Positions 729 to 8,741 of a stretch of 33,724 nt of DNA are shown piece after piece. The stretch is from Granulosicoccaceae bacterium (GTDB taxonomy: Bacteria; Pseudomonadota; Gammaproteobacteria; CALCKW01): the NCBI GenBank assembly GCA_049607125.1, contig JBMYWE010000001.1, positions 1-33,724 on the forward strand. Reading direction: 5' to 3'. Every line of letters starts with the position of its first letter. Positions within the stretch are counted from its first letter, which is position 1. Made by a program: the position numbers and the translations under genes. The notes under the pieces are model-generated. The model saw only the letters and a program-made list of their open reading frames with translations. It was not told the DNA's origin and made no database searches.

Positions 729-944
729 CTACTCCGTTTTTTGCGTATCAGGTTTCTTCTTTTCAGCTCGAACTAAACGCCAAACCAAAGCGAAGGGTGA
801 CAGCGCCATCACCAGTCCAATGCCGATCCAGATGCGTTTGTCGCTATAGTGCAAGGCCAACCACACCAGCCCCACAAGTGTGAGTGATGCCAAGGTCGCA
901 ATTAACACACCCGCGGTTGAGATTCCGCTTTGATGTTTCATCAA
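729..944 (-). CDS. Small membrane protein (two predicted TM helices), last gene of the receiver/sensor operon
   Basis: 71 aa with two hydrophobic stretches (GVLIATLASLTLVGLVWLAL and IWIGIGLVMALSPFALVW) and a Lys-rich tail. Its ATG overlaps the stop of the upstream sensor gene as ATGA (941-944). Confidence 0.6.
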   Translation of the reverse strand: MMKHQSGISTAGVLIATLASLTLVGLVWLALHYSDKRIWIGIGLVMALSPFALVWRLVRAEKKKPDTQKTE

Positions 945-2989
945 GCGCTTGCCTTTTGTTGTTCAGACAGCGCTTTTTGCAGTTTGGGCAGGCTGCGAAT
1001 GCCCTGAGAGTGTAGCCGGGTCAGCATGCGATTAAACACCCGGGCAATTAACTTAACCTGGTCGGTGGTGTCGTCTATGTCTGTCTCTATCCCCAGGCGG
1101 CTGGCAACGCGATACAGGCTATAGGTGGTGTCTTCAGGGAACAACAACGCAGCGATCGCAGCGGTGTCCAGCAAGCCCGCCTGTGAAATCAATTGCCTGT
1201 CAGCGGCTCCCAGCTGGCCCATAAGCAGATTGGCGTCGTGGGTGATAAAGGCACCGTTGCGGCTGAATTCGCTCAAGGCACTCGGGCCTTGCTCTTGTTG
1301 TTGTGGGCTAAGGGTTGAATGTTTGAGTTGTTTTTGCGCCAGCGCCTGGGGTTTTCCCCCTGCCAGAAGCAAGGCGACCAGGGTGCTCTCTGCACGGGCC
1401 ATATCAGCTGCCGATAGACGCTCGGAACCCACAGCGAGTACTGTGAAGTACTGGTGTTGTAATAATGGTTCTTTGTCGGATGCGGAAGTATCTGCTTTGG
1501 GACTAAAGTCAAACTTGCTGTTGGGTACTTCAAATTCGGCACCTGTTGGTGCCTCGCTCAAGGGCAGAGCAATCCGCAGGCGTTGCCCGTTTGATTTCGG
1601 ATCTTCTAACCATGCGCGGCCCGCGTGACGTTCTATCAATTCAACGAGCGCTCTTCCGCCGACAGCCACGCTCTGGCGAGTCGAAGTGGCCAGCGAACGA
1701 AAATCTTCTTGGCGCAGCACCCCCTCTCCCCAGTAGAGGTCGATCAGGAGCAGTCCGTGGCGCCTGTCGGTTTCTGCGTTCAATCCAAGTTTGTCCATTT
1801 CCCAGTCCGCCTGCAGAGCAGCCATGCAGTTGGCTATCGCTTTTGCAAGTGAAAAGCTATCGGCTTCTAGCCATAGACCGGCCTCGGGCACCGTGTCGAT
1901 TGGAGGCGCCATTTGATGTTGGCTGTGCAGCTGTTGTTGCACCGCACGCAGTAAATCGCGCGCGAGAATTGGCTCCAGCGGCCAGGTATGGGCCAGTTGG
2001 TCGGCTCGCTGGAAACTCAGGCGTTCGAGGTGGTCACAGTGGCGCGCGGTGTCGCGGCCTAGCGCGGTGAGTAGGCTGCGTTGATGGCGAGCCGCAGATG
2101 GGTCGCGCTGCAAGCTGTCGATACCGGTGCGCAGCCGGGTGAGCAAATTGCGGGTTTCGCGGTTGAGGCCGTGCAACAATTTATCGCGCTGATTGCCTTG
2201 GCTGTGCTGGGCTTCTATGTCGTCCAGTGCCAGTACAAAGCCTTCGATCTGGTCGTCTTCGGGATTCACAGCAGTGGCTAGGCGCACTCGCACCATGCGG
2301 CCATTGCGGCTCATGGCACTGAGTGTGGTGTGTGGTGCACGCGTCCCGCTTTGCAGTCTTTCGCGTACAATGGTCAATGCATGGGCAATCAGCTCGGCGT
2401 CCAATAGGGCAAAAATAGACTCTCCCAGCGCGCTCTGAGCAGCTTGGTGGTCTGTTGACTTTCCCAGCAAGCTGCGGGCTATGCCGTTGGCAAGGAGTAT
2501 TCGGCCCTCAAGGTTACAAACCATCACGCCTTGCGATATTTGATTGAGCAGGGCGGTGAGGCGAACCCGTTCGCGCGCGCGGGTAGCGGTGCTGTCGCTC
2601 AGTTCGCGGTCTAAGATGGAGCGGCGTTGCTGCACGCTGGCCATCAAGGCGTTGGTATTGCTCAGCAGTGTGTGCTCTTCGGGGCTGAGGTCGCTGTCTA
2701 GTGCCAGCGCCTGGCCGTCGGCTTCTAGCGCTTCGCGCAATCTTCGGTTGACGCGCGCTAGACTGTGCAGATGGCGTTGGTAGAAGCGGCCAAAAAACAA
2801 CACCGGTACCACCAGACCCACGCCTGCCAGAATCAGCATCAATGGCAAGCGTGGCTCCAGCACGTGCCGTAGCTGCTGTTTCTCAAAGGCGTTGAGATCT
2901 AGCCAGAGCATCAGTGATGGCAACAGCCCTACTAGGGCGATGGTCAACAGGGCACCGAGCAGAAGCTGTACCAATCGATTGTTTAGCAT
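941..2989 (-). CDS. Membrane sensor protein: 2 TM, linker, PAS-like domain, histidine-kinase-like core, and a C-terminal degenerate DnaQ/DEDD-exonuclease-like domain
   Basis: 682 aa. The N-terminus has two hydrophobic helices. PAS-like segment: ISQGVMVCNLEGRILLANGIARSLLG. Candidate H-box: KLLHGLNRETRNLLTRL. HATPase-like remnants: AKAIANCMAAL, DLYWGEGV, VGGRALVELIERHAGRAWLE...RLRIALPL. The tail has the layout of ExoI/II/III motifs (FTVLAVGSE, AFITHDANLL, LLDTAAIA...YSLYRVASRLGIE..DDTTDQVKLIARVF) but the acidic and His catalytic residues are replaced. Confidence 0.7.
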   Translation of the reverse strand: MLNNRLVQLLLGALLTIALVGLLPSLMLWLDLNAFEKQQLRHVLEPRLPLMLILAGVGLVVPVLFFGRFYQRHLHSLARVNRRLREALEADGQALALDSDLSPEEHTLLSNTNALMASVQQRRSILDRELSDSTATRARERVRLTALLNQISQGVMVCNLEGRILLANGIARSLLGKSTDHQAAQSALGESIFALLDAELIAHALTIVRERLQSGTRAPHTTLSAMSRNGRMVRVRLATAVNPEDDQIEGFVLALDDIEAQHSQGNQRDKLLHGLNRETRNLLTRLRTGIDSLQRDPSAARHQRSLLTALGRDTARHCDHLERLSFQRADQLAHTWPLEPILARDLLRAVQQQLHSQHQMAPPIDTVPEAGLWLEADSFSLAKAIANCMAALQADWEMDKLGLNAETDRRHGLLLIDLYWGEGVLRQEDFRSLATSTRQSVAVGGRALVELIERHAGRAWLEDPKSNGQRLRIALPLSEAPTGAEFEVPNSKFDFSPKADTSASDKEPLLQHQYFTVLAVGSERLSAADMARAESTLVALLLAGGKPQALAQKQLKHSTLSPQQQEQGPSALSEFSRNGAFITHDANLLMGQLGAADRQLISQAGLLDTAAIAALLFPEDTTYSLYRVASRLGIETDIDDTTDQVKLIARVFNRMLTRLHSQGIRSLPKLQKALSEQQKASA

Positions 2990-3345
2990 GTTGATGGGTC
3001 CAAGTGCTGTTGGATAGTCTGGAGTAGTGTGTCGGTAGCGAAGGGTTTGCGTAGCACGGCGTCTACCCCCTGTGCTTCAAGTTGGGCGGCGAGGCTTGCC
3101 TGCCAGTTACTGCTGAGATAGAGCAGGCGACAGGACGGCAGTCGTCGCTTGAGATGCTGGCACAGGTTTGCTGCTTCTTCCGCGTTGGCGTCATCTATCA
3201 GAATTAAACTGGGCTGAAGTTCAACGGACTGGCGCAATAGTTGACCCGTTTGGCTGGGGTGAGCGATCTCGTACTGATGCGCCAGGATGTTGGCCAGAGC
3301 TTGTGCAAGTACCAAGTCGTCCACGGCAAGTAGTATTTGAGTCAT
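2983..3345 (-). CDS. Single-domain CheY-like response regulator (receiver only)
   Basis: 120 aa with an acidic pair (AVDD), a phospho-acceptor context (LILIDD), YLSS, and a conserved Lys-Pro (LRKPF). There is no output domain. It overlaps the sensor gene start by 7 nt (ATGCTAA, 2983-2989). Confidence 0.85.
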   Translation of the reverse strand: MTQILLAVDDLVLAQALANILAHQYEIAHPSQTGQLLRQSVELQPSLILIDDANAEEAANLCQHLKRRLPSCRLLYLSSNWQASLAAQLEAQGVDAVLRKPFATDTLLQTIQQHLDPSTC

Positions 3346-3815
3346 ATATCGCTCTTGTCTCTACGCTTCAGTCTTGCTTTGCGCGACAAATTTGCGCTCT
3401 CAAATAGCAAGTCCTCACCCTTTGTGCATTTTCTCGAGCTCGGCGACTCGAAAGCGAGCCCTGAGCAATCTCTGTTGACTTCGAAAAACAATAGCTAACA
3501 TCCTGTTAAACAGACGAAAAACCTACACCTCGCGGGTGTGGACTCAGGTGTGTTCGCCAGCTGTTTAGTGTGCGACTAATCGCTCGCATCTGCAACAGCG
3601 AGATCGGAATTGGGCTGGGCATGGACGAGAAAGTTCCTCTGCGTTCTACTTTATTTGTCGATTGCACAATTAAATGACGGAACACTATGTAACTGTTTGG
3701 TTTTAGATGAGATTGTCGATAACTCTTACGGGGCATGGACTCGATCGCATCGTGACATTGAGCTTTTACCGCTCCATCCGGCGAGTGACAAAACAGACTT
3801 TCTGAGAGAAAAACA

Positions 3816-5030
3816 GTGATTTCAAATCGACGCAAATTCTTGCTTAAGTCAGCGGCTGGCTGCGCAACGCTGGGCAAGTATGGAGTTGCTTCAGGTCTGT
3901 TGAATATGAGTCTTAGCGAGAGAGCTGAGGCCCGGTGTGCCGACGCTTACAAAGCGTTGGTCTGTGTTTTTTTAGCAGGTGGCAATGACTCTTTTAATAT
4001 GCTGGCGCCGCTTAGCTCGAACGAGTACCGAGACTACGCCAGTGCACGCGCGCATTTGGCCTTGCCAAGCTCTGGTCCAGGTGCTCTATTGCCGGTCAGT
4101 CCCATCAACGCCGATGGACGCAGCTTCGGTATTCACCCCGGCATGCCCGAGTTGCAGGGATTATTTGACAGTGGTGCGGTAGACTTTTTTAGCAATGTGG
4201 GCACGCTGGTTGAGCCCACGACGCCGCAGCAGTTTAAGCGTGGCGCTACAGCTGTACCCGAGCAGTTGCTCGCGCACGCCGACCAGACTATGCAGTGGCA
4301 GACTTCAATGCCTCAGATGGGGGTGAGCAGTGGTTGGGCTGGACGTCTGGCTGATCTGTACCCGAGCGGCTCGGGCCCCGGCCGCTTGCCATCGATGCTT
4401 ATCTCTTTGAGTGGCCAGCCTGTTTTCATGCTGGGCAAGCACGCTAAGGCCCGCCCGCTCATGACGTCTATAGATTCGGCCACTCAGGATGAGGCGGGTA
4501 TTAGCTGTCGCTCGGATTTCCCCTCCACGGCACTTGGTTCTCAGCTCGAGACAATTGCGCGCACCATCGAGCATGGCCGCCGTCTTGGCTTGCGTCGGCA
4601 AGTGTTTTTTGTGCAGATGGCAGGCTGGGATCATCACCACGGGTTGCTACACAGGCAGTCTCAGATGCTGCCTGTTTTGAGTCAGGGTCTGGGTGCTTTT
4701 TGGGCCGCTTTGGGGAAACTCGGTTTGCAAGATAACGTCACCACTTTTACCGCCTCTGAATTCGGGCGCTCGCTGCATTCTCGTGCCAGCGGCTCTGAGC
4801 ACGGATGGGGCGGGAACCAGATTGTTATGGGAGGGGCCAGTGTGGGTAAAAGCTTGCACGGCGTATACCCCGAGACGCTGCGACTTGGCTCCGGCCAGGA
4901 CATCAGCGGTGCGGGTAGCTTGTTGCCCACGACCTCCACGGATCAATACTTTGCCCAGCTTCTGCGATGGTACGGGGTGAGCGACAGCGATCTGCAGGTT
5001 GTTTTGCCGAATTTGTCAAATTTCAGTTGA
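3816..5030 (+). CDS. DUF1501 family protein with a twin-arginine (Tat) signal peptide
   Basis: GTG start. The N-terminus SNRRKFLLKSAAGCATLG is Tat-like. Hallmark DUF1501 segments are present: ALVCVFLAGGNDSFNMLAP and SEFGRSLHSRASGSEHGWGGNQIVMGG. Confidence 0.85.
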   Translation: MISNRRKFLLKSAAGCATLGKYGVASGLLNMSLSERAEARCADAYKALVCVFLAGGNDSFNMLAPLSSNEYRDYASARAHLALPSSGPGALLPVSPINADGRSFGIHPGMPELQGLFDSGAVDFFSNVGTLVEPTTPQQFKRGATAVPEQLLAHADQTMQWQTSMPQMGVSSGWAGRLADLYPSGSGPGRLPSMLISLSGQPVFMLGKHAKARPLMTSIDSATQDEAGISCRSDFPSTALGSQLETIARTIEHGRRLGLRRQVFFVQMAGWDHHHGLLHRQSQMLPVLSQGLGAFWAALGKLGLQDNVTTFTASEFGRSLHSRASGSEHGWGGNQIVMGGASVGKSLHGVYPETLRLGSGQDISGAGSLLPTTSTDQYFAQLLRWYGVSDSDLQVVLPNLSNFS

Positions 5031-5037
5031 CGGGCTC

Positions 5038-6483
5038 TCAGCCAAAATAGCCGTGTAGATAAAACACGCCGGGCTGCCCTCGGCGCTCAAACACCCAATA
5101 GCGAAGCCCTTGCGCGTCGCGTGCGGTGTAGTAGTCTCGCCGTACATCTGGCTCTTCCCACCAGCCACTTTCCAGACGTTCGGGCCCTGATTCCAATCGC
5201 AGGTTATGCGGGGCGGGCCGAGGTTCGGGCAGTAACCACAGTGGTCGTGGCAGCGTCACTATGGGCACCTTTGTGGCGTTGCTGTTCTGGCCGAGTGGGA
5301 ACTCTTGCCCCGCGCACTCGGGGCGGTGATCATCGCGCAGGCCGAGCTGGAAGACACGTTGTTCGCCCAGTCGTGCCGCTATTTGTTCTAGCACTTCGCG
5401 GTGACCTCGATGCCCAGCGCCAGATTTGTCAAATAGGTCTGCGCCGTCTCGCACCACCGATAGCAGCTCGTCGGCGCTTAGTTGTAGAGCGCGCACGGGC
5501 TCGGGCAGTTGTAGCTGTTCAAGCTGCTGGCGCGCCACGCGCAGTAGCCGTGTGGCGTCGCCGCTGGGCTCTAGCAGTCGAACCGGCAGACGGGTGGGCT
5601 CTAGCCGCGGGTGTTGTAGCTCTAGCGCGATTTGCTTGACGCCGCAGTCTCGGGCAATCAGCTGTGCCGCCAGTGTCTCGATCAAGCGTCTTAGCGGAAA
5701 CACCAGAGAGGCGGTGTTCTCCACTTCTTGCAATAGTTCTAGGCGTTGCTCGAATCGTTCTGGTGGTTGGAAGGGTGGCTGTGGGTCGTCGGCCAAGCCG
5801 CGCAGTCGATCGAGGGTGTCACAGCAGCTGGGTCCAAAGCGTCGAGCAAGCGCATCGCGCGGCAGTTGTAGCAGTTGCCCGGTGCTGCGCAGCCCTGCTT
5901 GGCGCAGGCTTTGACGGGTTTTCTCGTCCAGTAGCAGAGCGTCGATCGGGGCTTCATTTAGGGCCACCTCAAGGGCGGTGCGATCGAGTAGATCGGGGCC
6001 TCTGAGTCTAGCCATCAAGCGCGCCGCCAGTGGTGTGGGTGCCACCCCGAGGCGGTGGCGGTAGCCGATCTCCTCGAGGCCCTGTTGCAGTTGCTCACGC
6101 AGGGCAGGCAAGCCTCCGAACAACCGCAGACTGGCGCCCACTTCTAGCAGTAGCGCGGCGGGTGGAGTTAGGCTGAGTTGTGAGGAGAAACGATAAGCCC
6201 AGAGCGCCAGCTGCTGCAACAGCTCGTGTTCGCGCTGTTCATCGTAGGCTTGTAATTGCAAGTCTGGTTGGAGTGCCATGGCGGTGGCCACTGGTTGCTG
6301 TGCTCGCACGCCAGCGGCGTGCGCCTCGCGGTTGGCGCTGTGGATCCAGCGCTGGCTGCCGTGGCTGGCCACCAGTGCCCGTGCCGGCTGCTCGCCAGCA
6401 TTGCAGGCCAAGCTGTCGAGCAGCAGGGCGGGCAGACCGATACACAGCCAGAGGGTTGCTGGGGCGTTGCTGTCAAGGCTCAT
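5038..6483 (-). CDS. imuB: ImuB, the Y-family-polymerase-like subunit of the SOS mutagenesis cassette
   Basis: 481 aa. The N-terminus TLWLCIGLPALLLDSL and the C-terminus LRYWVFERRGQPGVFYLHGYFG are typical of ImuB. It lies downstream of imuA and behind a LexA box. Confidence 0.85.
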   Translation of the reverse strand: MSLDSNAPATLWLCIGLPALLLDSLACNAGEQPARALVASHGSQRWIHSANREAHAAGVRAQQPVATAMALQPDLQLQAYDEQREHELLQQLALWAYRFSSQLSLTPPAALLLEVGASLRLFGGLPALREQLQQGLEEIGYRHRLGVAPTPLAARLMARLRGPDLLDRTALEVALNEAPIDALLLDEKTRQSLRQAGLRSTGQLLQLPRDALARRFGPSCCDTLDRLRGLADDPQPPFQPPERFEQRLELLQEVENTASLVFPLRRLIETLAAQLIARDCGVKQIALELQHPRLEPTRLPVRLLEPSGDATRLLRVARQQLEQLQLPEPVRALQLSADELLSVVRDGADLFDKSGAGHRGHREVLEQIAARLGEQRVFQLGLRDDHRPECAGQEFPLGQNSNATKVPIVTLPRPLWLLPEPRPAPHNLRLESGPERLESGWWEEPDVRRDYYTARDAQGLRYWVFERRGQPGVFYLHGYFG

Positions 6484-6896
6484 GGTCTATGCCCTGTCGG
6501 TTCAATGTGCTTGTTGGGTTTTTCATCAGGGCAAACGGAGCACCGACTGGGCCGTTGTTTGACTGCACGTCCCGGGTTGCTGTCCCGAACTGTGCGCTCT
6601 GAACTGCGCGTCCCGAACCGAAGTCGAGCCCACATAGAACACTGACCGAGGTTCGACTTTAGTCGAACAAAGTGTGCTGTCCGGCGGTGAAGACGTTCGA
6701 ATGAATTCGAACCCACAGTCAGAGTCTGTATCAGGCTTTGGTGGAGTGAGTGAGTGCGGCGTTTAACTGCCAGTGGCCTTTGTGGGTTCGATTTTAATTG
6801 GACAAAACATGCTGTCCGGCAGCCAGTACATTTGCAGGAATTCGAATCTACATAGAGCAATGCCAGACTGGGGGCTTGCAGGTACTCACCCGTCAC
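6480..6896 (-). CDS. Hypothetical very basic, Cys-containing repeat protein lying exactly between imuA and imuB (coding status unproven)
   Basis: 138 codons are open. The GTG start overlaps the imuA stop (GTGA, 6893-6896) and the TGA stop overlaps the imuB ATG (ATGA, 6480-6483). Two 26-residue internal repeats differ largely at synonymous codon positions. I recognise no family, and third-position GC is lower than in the neighbouring genes. Confidence 0.45.
   Translation of the reverse strand: MTGEYLQAPSLALLYVDSNSCKCTGCRTACFVQLKSNPQRPLAVKRRTHSLHQSLIQTLTVGSNSFERLHRRTAHFVRLKSNLGQCSMWARLRFGTRSSERTVRDSNPGRAVKQRPSRCSVCPDEKPNKHIEPTGHRP
6639..6716 (-). repeat. Repeat unit B of the imuA-imuB spacer (encodes VGSNSFERLHRRTAHFVRLKSNLGQC in the ORF frame)
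   Basis: The core at 6650-6685 (ggttcgactttagtcgaacaaagtgtgctgtccggc) matches 6785-6820 at 29 of 36 positions. It contains the hairpins GTTCGAC-TTTA-GTCGAAC (6651-6668) and GTTCGAAT-GA-ATTCGAAC (6695-6712). Confidence 0.8.
6774..6851 (-). repeat. Repeat unit A of the imuA-imuB spacer (encodes VDSNSCKCTGCRTACFVQLKSNPQRP in the ORF frame)
   Basis: The core at 6785-6820 (ggttcgattttaattggacaaaacatgctgtccggc) is a direct repeat of 6650-6685, offset by 135 nt (45 codons). Confidence 0.8.
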
Positions 6897-7570
6897 ACCA
6901 GCACCTCGTTGGCCGCGTGTGGCCAGTGGTGGGCGGGTGTATGAGCCGGTGGCGTGTCATCCTCGAGCTGTAACTGGCCGGGGTTACTACCACGACACTT
7001 GAGTACCTGCAATTGCTGTTGTCGCCACAGCAAACGCAGTGCGGCGGGTGAGGACTGCTCGGCGCTGTGTTCGGGGCGATAGGCCATTGCCCAACAGCCG
7101 CCGCCCGTCTCGGCAGCCAACTGCAGACGACGCAGTTGGGTGGGGGTGGCGCGCGGCAGCCACACCAGCACGACCGCAAAACTGCCGCTGCGCAGTAGTT
7201 GCTCGGCGGACCAGAGCGCGTCTTTGCCGTCTGGGCTGGCCTTGTCCTCGGGGCTGATCACCCACAGCTGTGACAATACGACTCCCGCCGCAGCCAGTGC
7301 CGGTGGGTAGGGCGGTGCTGGAGGGGCGACCAGCGCCACTCGTTCTCCGCGGGTTGTCTGCTGTGCCAGTGCGGGTGTGAGCAAGGACAGCTCGCCGCCG
7401 CCTAGCCCGGGGACATGCAATTCAGTCAGAGCGCCCAGCGGCCAACCACCACCGGGCAAAAAGGCGTCCAGCCGCGCCTGCCCGGTAGGTGCAGTGCGCT
7501 GAGCGACTGGGTGTTGATGGCCGCGCCACAGCAGTGGCTGGCCCTGAAGTAGTTGATCAAGTGAAGCCAT
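6893..7570 (-). CDS. imuA: ImuA (RecA/SulA-like protein of the SOS mutagenesis cassette)
   Basis: I place the start at the ATG at 7570-7568 (MASLDQLLQGQPLLWRG...). The segment LDAFLPGGGWPLGALTEL is the characteristic ImuA motif. The longer tracked ORF (to 7738) would read through the LexA box and promoter. Confidence 0.85.
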   Translation of the reverse strand: MASLDQLLQGQPLLWRGHQHPVAQRTAPTGQARLDAFLPGGGWPLGALTELHVPGLGGGELSLLTPALAQQTTRGERVALVAPPAPPYPPALAAAGVVLSQLWVISPEDKASPDGKDALWSAEQLLRSGSFAVVLVWLPRATPTQLRRLQLAAETGGGCWAMAYRPEHSAEQSSPAALRLLWRQQQLQVLKCRGSNPGQLQLEDDTPPAHTPAHHWPHAANEVLV

Positions 7571-7582
7571 ACACAGAGTATA

Positions 7583-7602
7583 TACTGTAAAAATAAACAG
7601 TA
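7583..7602. promoter_or_regulatory. LexA (SOS) operator in the imuA / GNAT divergent intergenic region
   Basis: TACTGTAAAAATAAACAGTA is a perfect CTGT-N8-ACAG palindrome with an AT-rich spacer. It ends 12 nt upstream of the imuA ATG. Confidence 0.85.
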
Positions 7603-7687
7603 AATATTTTTGCTTAAATAGACTGTTGTCTGGTCGGATGGCTATGCGAAGATGCAAGAGGTGCCACCGAGCAAGAAGAAACGAAGC

Positions 7688-8173
7688 ATGATCAGCACAA
7701 GAACCCTGACAGCGGCAGATCAAGCACACTTGTGGCATTGGCTACACCTGGCCTTGTGGGACCCGCCGCCCGCCGGACTGCGTCCTATCCGTGTCTTGAA
7801 CGAGCCGGGAACTCGAATCTATGCCGAGCACTGGGGGCGCCCCGGAGATTTGGGTTTACTGGCCCAAAAGCAAGGAAAAAACATAGGTGCATGCTGGATG
7901 AGATGCCTGCCCGAGAGTGAAGGTTTAGCCTTTGTCGACGCGCAGACTCCGCAATTGGGTATTTCACTGGAAGAGGTTCACCGAGGCAGGGGCTATGGAG
8001 AGCAGCTGATGCGGGCGACTCTGCGTGCCGCCAAACAAGCCGGTTACCGCCAAGTCTCCCTGACGGTGCACCCAGAGAACCCCGCGCAAAGAGCCTATCG
8101 CCGCTGCGGGTTTGAAAGCATCGGTACTCGCCAGCATTACCAGTTGATGTTAGTTAAGCTGCCCTCGCGCTAA
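7688..8173 (+). CDS. GNAT family N-acetyltransferase
   Basis: The acetyl-CoA binding motif HRGRGYGEQLMRATL and the C-terminal NPAQRAYRRCGFESIG are present. The start could be ATG 7688 (MISTRTL) or ATG 7652. Confidence 0.8.
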   Translation: MISTRTLTAADQAHLWHWLHLALWDPPPAGLRPIRVLNEPGTRIYAEHWGRPGDLGLLAQKQGKNIGACWMRCLPESEGLAFVDAQTPQLGISLEEVHRGRGYGEQLMRATLRAAKQAGYRQVSLTVHPENPAQRAYRRCGFESIGTRQHYQLMLVKLPSR

Positions 8174-8447
8174 TTTGGCAACAACGTCACCCACTCAGGG
8201 GTAGCTACCTCCAGTAGCATCTCTCAGTCGGATCACCGTGTCCGAATATCAAAACCGCTCTCCCACCAGATCTTAGCGGCATGCGTAACTGCGATGTATC
8301 ACTTGAACGCTACAAGTCGTGTGAAAATTTCAAATAGGACAAAAAAAACGATCGTCACTTGATCCTGACAGAAAGCTGCTTAATGATGAGTCAATCACCA
8401 AATTCGCAAAAATGGTGAATCAACTTTGGTACAGGCGGGAGAAAGTC

Positions 8448-8741
8448 GTGAATCAATTTGTAACAGGTGCTATCTCACTCGCGTTGCTGTTCGGTGCAAC
8501 GTCAGCACTCGCATGCACGCTAGACACTGATTGCGACATAGGCAGCCAATGCGTAAAAAGTGACGAAGGTATTTATGGTGCCTGCGTGGGTGGGTTGTTT
8601 CCGGGTAACAGCGAAAAAGACCCTATACATGCCATCAGTGGGGGCAACAGCAGTTACGGCAACAGCTGCACGTTCGACATAGACTGTGACACAGGGTCAC
8701 GCTGTGTTAAAAATGGCGGTGTGTTTGGCGCCTGTCTGTAA
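8448..8741 (+). CDS. Secreted cysteine-rich mini-protein with two tandem 4-Cys modules
   Basis: GTG at 8448 is preceded by GGGAGA; the alternative ATG at 8412 is in frame. The signal peptide FVTGAISLALLFGATSALA ends in A-L-A. The two modules are CTLDTDCDIGSQCVKSDEGIYGAC and CTFDIDCDTGSRCVKNGGVFGAC. Confidence 0.6.
   Translation: MNQFVTGAISLALLFGATSALACTLDTDCDIGSQCVKSDEGIYGACVGGLFPGNSEKDPIHAISGGNSSYGNSCTFDIDCDTGSRCVKNGGVFGACL

Follow-up and report, generated by a model that had tools for sequence, protein, structure and literature searches.

The closest described counterparts of the DNA analysed here are the mycobacterial interspersed repetitive units (MIRUs), which are 40-100-bp repeats located between operon genes and transcribed polycistronically (Supply et al. 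1997, as reviewed by Delihas 2011; PMC3184786). The open reading frames (ORFs) of MIRUs overlap the adjacent genes at both ends, the filled sites carry tetranucleotide direct repeats, and M. leprae has no MIRU at the homologous site (PMC3184786). The same review lists many repeat elements with ORFs that leave the frame open, so that the host gene or operon works (PMC3184786). In this study, we analysed a stretch of 33,724 bp (the window), which is a complete contig of an NCBI metagenome-assembled genome (MAG) labelled as Granulosicoccaceae bacterium. On its minus strand, a 138-codon ORF passes through the gap between imuA and imuB, the two genes of an SOS mutagenesis operon. A preliminary description of this DNA had suggested that the ORF encodes a small basic protein so far undescribed, either a subunit of the ImuA-ImuB mutasome or one that regulates it, or that the gap holds a structured element inserted into the operon without breaking the reading frame. 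We found that the 409 nt between the two genes are very probably an insertion specific to this lineage rather than the gene of a conserved mutasome subunit. The reading that we favour, to which we assign a probability of roughly 0.55, combines a lineage-specific repeat insertion with an ORF that is predicted to be translated as a bridge between imuA and imuB.

The locus resembled the MIRUs in several respects. Repeat units of tens of bases lie between co-directional operon genes, the site is empty in the relatives, and the ORF overlaps the upstream stop codon (GTGA) as well as the downstream start codon (ATGA). The likeness of the flanking tetranucleotide repeat is partial, since it holds at three of four bases. 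However, the locus belongs to another phylum and has no known sequence relation to MIRUs. Its units are diverged (74% identity) and spaced 97 and 135 nt apart, whereas MIRUs are near-identical head-to-tail copies. MIRUs are defined by their dispersal to many loci. Within the 33.7-kb contig, no further copy of the repeat unit was found, a result that counts against a very abundant repeat family but not against a modest one. By analogy, the locus would work like a MIRU-type intercistronic repeat without being a member of any named family.

REP/REPIN doublets and Rickettsia palindromic elements (RPEs) appear to be more distant analogues than MIRUs. The RPEs share with this locus a repeat insertion that keeps a reading frame open; however, they insert in coding sequences and join the host protein, whereas the insert here lies between two cistrons and carries a separate ORF. 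REP elements follow a GT[AG]G tetranucleotide rule. In partial likeness to the REP/REPIN/BIME elements, the short imperfect palindromes of the insert are preceded by a GT(A/G)G-like tetranucleotide (TGTGGGTTCGAATTC, TGTAGATTCGAATTC), and inverted pairs about 26 nt apart are found in an intercistronic region that is predicted to be transcribed. Nevertheless, the stems of the insert are weak, with only 7 bp and a higher AT content (z = -2.2 and -0.95). Further copies are lacking both from the 33.7-kb contig and from the 170 kb of related loci, and no RAYT gene is in view. The imuA and imuB genes on either side of the insert are genuine members of the imuA-imuB(-dnaE2) SOS mutagenesis cassette, with a LexA box in front of them; however, dnaE2 is not adjacent in this clade, and a response regulator and a PAS protein follow imuB.

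The imuAB loci of the closest ImuB relatives were retrieved from a 15-billion-protein collection, which gave nine records representing eight distinct loci, with ImuB proteins 56-81% identical to that of the window. At the imuA/imuB junction, the two genes overlapped by 4 nt in six of the eight loci (GTGA; ATGA in the locus L005) and were 2-3 nt apart in the other two. None of the eight loci, in any of the nine records, contained an insert or an ORF between imuA and imuB, and a tblastn search of the ORF against the related loci gave chance-level matches only (E of at least 3). In the window, the corresponding position is occupied by 409 nt (6484-6892), flanked by GTGA (6896-6893) and ATGA (6483-6480). 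The ImuA of the window was alignable end to end with that of four relatives, its C-terminus ...HHWPHAANEVLV standing against ...HHWPRAANEQLPL in the relatives, and the N-terminus of the window ImuB, MSLDSNAPATLWLCIG, aligned with V/MSAPPxLWLCIG of the relatives. Since ImuA is aligned to its very end and ImuB from its start, the 409 nt sits precisely in the ancestral stop/start overlap, and both proteins are full length in the window despite the insert. The GC content was 0.50-0.56 in the insert, with a low of 0.50-0.52, and 0.63-0.69 in the flanks, which confirmed the dip across the insert noticed before. The right boundary of the insert may be misplaced by up to ~18 nt, since four additional codons (LDSN) are present in imuB as well.

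These four codons (CTTGACAGCAAC, 6466-6477) are imuB codons 3-6; they are extra with respect to all relatives and adjoin the insert. The 9-mer GACAGCAAC recurs inside the insert (around 6567-6575). The extra codons could stem from the event that brought in the insert, or they may be due to chance.

The order of the elements on the minus strand is the LexA box and promoter, imuA, the 138-codon ORF, and imuB. The LexA (SOS) box TACTGTTTATTTTTACAGTA (7583-7602) is a perfect gamma-type site just 5' of imuA and the sole match to CTGT-N8-ACAG in the window; thus, a second LexA box inside the insert was rejected. A sigma-70-like promoter, TTTACT-16-TATACT (7604-7577), overlaps the LexA box upstream of imuA. 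The imuA gene (6893-7570) encodes 225 aa, matches NCBIfam NF033429 (ImuA_translesion) at 1e-55, and ends with the TGA at 6895-6893. Its start was corrected to the ATG at 7570 by the alignment with the relatives; the mechanical ORF (6893-7738, 281 aa) was 56 codons too long, and the overcalled extension crosses the LexA box and the promoter. The imuB gene (5038-6483) encodes 481 aa with the Pfam domains IMS and IMS_C. Its product is 100% identical to an NCBI MAG protein and is the sole member of its protein cluster. A fusion of the ORF with ImuB by way of a sequencing frameshift was considered and rejected, as the N-terminus of ImuB (MS...LWLCIG) matches that of the relatives' ImuB in the alignment. 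Between the window and the relatives, the dN/dS was 0.10-0.18 for imuA and 0.06-0.12 for imuB. The values among the relatives themselves were in the same range, indicating that both genes are still functional. The insertion was not datable because the synonymous sites were saturated.

The ORF (6480-6896, minus strand) was present in the ORF list exactly as first described, with 138 codons and a GTG start. Both overlaps were also read in the sequence: GTGA at 6896-6893 contains the imuA stop and the ORF start, and ATGA at 6483-6480 contains the imuB start and the TGA of the ORF. The GTG sits where the imuB start of the relatives is, and a Shine-Dalgarno-like GAGGT motif (6907-6903) lies 6 nt 5' of it. 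The preliminary description had taken the coupling at both ends as evidence for a gene. The geometry is real; however, the two overlaps are not independent, since both copy the ancestral 4-nt imuA/imuB overlap, and the end-to-end coupling arises because the insert lies between two copies of this RTGA. Coupling at both ends is expected if the RTGA junction was duplicated or regenerated upon insertion, and the phase (a 1/3 chance) and the stop-free run are left to explain.

We propose that a stretch of ~409 nt carrying repeats entered the operon precisely at RTGA, the 4-nt overlap by which imuA and imuB are joined in the relatives. The left copy, GTGA, provides the imuA stop and the GTG, and the right copy, ATGA, provides the present imuB start and the TGA. 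The spacing of the two copies brings the left GTG and the right TGA into one frame; with no stop in between, a 138-codon ORF results. The promoter with the LexA box would give a single imuA-insert-imuB mRNA, which is plausible in view of the LexA box and promoter upstream and of the insert, in which no terminator-like site was found. Ribosomes ending imuA would then restart at the overlapping GUG, with GAGGU 6 nt upstream, read through the insert, and terminate at the UGA overlapping the imuB AUG. A further restart at this AUG would keep imuB translationally coupled to imuA despite the insert. The basic, Cys-rich peptide would be a by-product and no mutasome subunit. The promoter, the LexA box, the overlaps, and the Shine-Dalgarno-like motifs are read at the sequence level, and from them we infer every expression step. 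If the bridge reading is true, the locus would be a clear natural example of a tightly coupled gene pair that survived an insertion, in which the duplicated stop/start overlap and the open frame let ribosomes reach imuB and the SOS mutagenesis operon keeps working.

The frame of the ORF is open somewhat beyond chance. The five other frames hold 3-6 stops each, and a stop-free frame of the ORF length was obtained in 1.8% of dinucleotide shuffles. Both results give mild support to a selection on openness. Such openness is unusual, yet not overwhelming for a finding that was chosen for being an ORF. The most serious rival, which we consider possible but on balance unlikely, is that we are dealing with a neutral or slightly harmful spacer whose frame is open by coincidence. 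In that case, imuB would use its own ribosome-binding site or an internal promoter in the insert, and the ORF would perhaps be translated incidentally, without any consequence.

Several observations weigh against the bridge reading, and most of them suit such a spacer. With both overlaps stemming from the ancestral RTGA, the phase and the openness alone need explaining, and a 1.8% chance multiplied by a 1/3 phase is not negligible for a finding picked as an ORF. Assuming that the units were duplicated in place, a neutral-decay simulation at ~13% substitution, the divergence that the repeats imply, left the frame open 15% of the time. Furthermore, imuB has a weak AGGG motif of its own, 8 nt 5' of its ATG, and a sigma-70-like site, CGGACA-16-TAAAAT (6818-6791, minus strand; 9/12 matches), lies inside one of the repeat units (unit B). 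This site could drive LexA-independent imuB transcription, and one chance site is plausible in an AT-richer stretch. With its own AGGG and the internal sigma-70-like site, imuB might not need coupling; the 15% of open frames and the weak ribosome-binding motif of imuB keep coincidence a serious rival. The absence of a coding signature from the ORF, described below, is in keeping with a spacer as well as with the bridge. An orphan gene, if young or horizontally acquired, could likewise be without homologues and differ in codon usage from its new genome, which weighs against the bridge reading. Both the translation of the ORF and a restart at imuB are themselves predictions.

A further point against the bridge reading concerns the origin of the insertion. 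The flanking tetranucleotides GTGA and ATGA agree at three of the four bases, and the junctions of the relatives use either form. A long target-site duplication of the imuB 5' end was rejected, since the local alignment of both flanks was equalled or beaten by 153 of 500 shuffles. Because of the one-base mismatch and the non-significant longer duplication, a transposition-type origin is unproven.

Nevertheless, a coincidentally open spacer has difficulties of its own. The phase and the openness jointly have a probability of ~0.6%, and each of the other frames is interrupted by its 3-6 stops. With a good GAGGT at a 6-nt spacing and a GTG at the position of the relatives' coupled imuB start, non-translation is hard to picture. 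Moreover, imuB is under strong purifying selection, so its expression must have been preserved.

The insert consists of three diverged ~70-nt units in the same orientation, separated by spacers (6545-6634, 6645-6717, and 6780-6852). In unit A (6645-6717, ~72 nt; DNA fold z = -2.2), two 7-bp hairpins, GTTCGAC-TTTA-GTCGAAC and GTTCGAAT-GA-ATTCGAAC, flank the core TGCTGTCCGGC. Unit B (6780-6852, ~72 nt; DNA fold z = -0.95) has the same core, TGCTGTCCGGC, and 11 bp can form between its ends, TGTGGGTTCGA... and ...TCGAATCTACA. The DNA repeat between units A and B (6650-6717 and 6785-6852) extends over 68 nt with 74% identity and a 135-nt spacing; it and the two hairpins of unit A were found as previously noted. 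The third unit (6545-6634) is more diverged, with the core TGCTGTCCCG, the tail GAAGTCGAGCCCACA, and a 14-nt tandem repeat, GTCCCGAACTGCGC, present 2.6 times. It lies 97 nt from unit A and is thus out of frame with units A and B, so that the "third echo", first presented as a repeat of the protein, did not hold as such. All three units share a TGCTGTCC(G/C)G core, with GGTTCGA... and ...TCGAACC as the limits of the better-kept units A and B. The half-site GTTCGA/TCGAAC had a density of 12.2 per kb in the insert, compared with 0.51 per kb elsewhere in the contig.

Within the insert, the inverted arms measured 19 nt (84%) and 23 nt (78%). However, the whole-insert fold was not unusually structured (z = -0.6 on either strand), and a structured RNA or DNA across the whole insert was rejected. 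Inverted pairs were internal only; no terminal inverted repeats were present at the ends of 6484-6892, which means that the insert is not a classical MITE. The idea of an element inserted without breaking the frame was therefore borne out with respect to the lineage-specific insertion and the open frame, but not with respect to the structure. A tRNA-derived element was also considered, as GGTTCGAA resembles a T-arm; it was rejected, since ARAGORN found no tRNA in the insert and Rfam gave nothing at the gathering thresholds and noise only at E ≤ 10.

Searches for DNA similar to the insert elsewhere in the contig, across 170 kb of related loci, and among plasmids and phages found none. A core pattern fitting both local units gave no match in the GTDB representative genomes, the JGI metagenomes, and IMG/VR, which are collections without the source genome. 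A looser pattern gave no viral matches and 81 matches in the genome collection; these were scattered over taxa, with a median identity outside the fixed positions of 26%, as expected by chance. In the metagenomes, the matches of a terminal-repeat pattern were convergent tRNA gene ends only. As a speculation that we hold to be rather unlikely, the ~70-nt GTTCGA-palindrome unit would represent an undescribed Granulosicoccaceae family of intercistronic mobile repeats, a gammaproteobacterial counterpart of MIRU that targets 4-nt stop/start overlaps and is tolerated only if a bridging ORF is regenerated. A bolder variant, that the bridging peptide itself now modulates ImuA-ImuB, is graded no higher.

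Improbable in our judgement is that the ORF is a genuine lineage-specific orphan gene, whose small basic product, which contains Cys, would act on ImuA-ImuB or together with it. Its product has 24 R+K, 8 D+E, and 7 Cys, as counted before, with a pI of 10.7, and it carries CxC..C and CxxC motifs. These motifs, the frame open beyond simple chance, the good Shine-Dalgarno-like motif, the coupled geometry in an SOS operon, and the A-B spacing of 135 nt, which is a multiple of three, are in favour of a gene. However, the ORF did not look like a gene in any of the tests run, and the 409-nt DNA has no native coding signature. The GC contents at the first, second, and third codon positions were flat (0.57/0.53/0.50), whereas the other contig genes checked had a marked trough at the second position (0.41-0.54), with the order GC1>GC3>GC2 in imuA and imuB. 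A codon-usage log-likelihood was trained on 20 contig ORFs and compared with 108 same-length windows of real genes. The ORF scored -0.164 bits per codon, below every real-gene window, the minimum of which was +0.077.

The argument that the repeats are constrained at the protein level was not sustained either. The five synonymous codon differences between the repeats are real, but they are accompanied by 14 nonsynonymous ones. In the frame control, the pN/pS, which could compare only the internal repeats of the ORF, stood at 0.75 for the ORF frame, no lower than for the five control frames, which ranged over 0.52-1.03. The residues conserved between the repeats map onto the DNA palindromes and the TCGAAC half-sites, so that a DNA-level explanation suffices, and the third unit is out of frame. 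The single-sequence AlphaFold2 model of the ORF product gave a pLDDT of 32, which is weak evidence alone and uninformative beyond the lack of a confident fold. No Pfam or NCBIfam match was found for the product, in Pfam even at E ≤ 10, and a word-indexed search of 5.8 billion protein clusters gave no homologue. The notion of a new subunit or regulator is therefore unsupported: the ORF is in none of the eight related imuAB loci, it has no credible homologue (a doubtful RCC1 match being the only resemblance), and its codon usage and GC phase are non-coding-like. The ImuA-ImuB-DnaE2 mutasome gains no component from this locus, which cautions against annotating pass-through frames as new proteins.

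The RCC1 match came from an exhaustive phmmer search with the ORF product against 1.84 billion representatives. Two matches only were obtained, and both were beta-propeller proteins with RCC1 repeats (P0121, E = 4.4e-8 in 8 stretches; P0122, E = 6.5e-4 in 4 stretches). The insert could accordingly have originated as a decayed fragment of an RCC1-like gene captured in frame, which would explain the ~45-residue repeat and the open frame. Residues 58-108 of the ORF product aligned over 48-51 residues, with at most one gap, to a whole RCC1 repeat (VGSxSF..I....H.L.LKS.G.CW.W.....G...SSP). A repeat hidden Markov model built from P0121 and P0122 gave the ORF 11.4 bits, while the maximum of 5,000 shuffles was 6.6 bits. 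When rescored among 2,376 six-frame segments, the ORF was first at 11.1 bits and the next best had 5.1, corresponding to a p of roughly 2e-5 for this family. Nevertheless, the library-wide E-value arose because one weak resemblance was counted once per near-identical target repeat. Per repeat, the score was ~11 bits (29 bits with BLASTP), which is far from significant at database scale. Only two of many RCC1 clusters were matched, and the Pfam RCC1 model (PF00415) gave nothing even at E ≤ 10. The motifs that match, VGSNSF and LKSN, are exactly what the DNA hairpins and the TCGAAC half-sites encode, the repeat period is 45 aa here and 50-52 aa in the two RCC1-repeat matches, and the ORF has no coding-type GC phase. 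We do not accept the resemblance as established homology; an RCC1-like origin of the insert is doubtful and a minor rival, about as improbable as the orphan gene.

Finally, an assembly artefact would suit a whole 33.7-kb MAG contig that occurs once in the collection, but it is highly improbable, since intact gene ends lie exactly at both borders of the insert and nothing of imuA or imuB is lost, the flanks are not exact repeats able to mislead an assembler, and the internal repeats are diverged (74%), as in real, aged sequence.

Some features around the operon were also observed. The genes downstream of imuA-imuB encode, in conserved synteny, a response regulator and a ~680-aa PAS-domain protein (941-6483 in the window; related records L001-L009). 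In all eight related loci, imuB is directly followed by these two genes, with a gap of roughly 100-380 nt. In the window, a solitary DUF1501 gene (3816-5030, plus strand) with a Tat-like signal lies between imuB and the response-regulator gene (2983-3345), with ~470 nt of AT-rich DNA (GC 0.45-0.50) upstream of it; no DUF1800 partner gene is visible beside it. The whole region (3346-5037) represents a second insertion specific to this lineage at the same locus, judging from the layout of the related loci. A dnaE2-like gene (1095 aa, PHP and DNA_pol3_alpha) was seen in L009 only, ~5 kb downstream and past a peptidase M16 gene. A plus-strand gene (8412-8741) located on the side of the imuA promoter encodes a small protein with Cys-rich repeats (CTLDTDCDIGSQCVK...CTFDIDCDTGSRCVK). 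Small genes of the relatives (98-187 aa) are similarly placed upstream of imuA (L002, 8507-8803; L003, 8344-8907; L005, 652-948), and faint DX or Dickkopf-like Pfam marks were seen in the small upstream genes of L002-L004.

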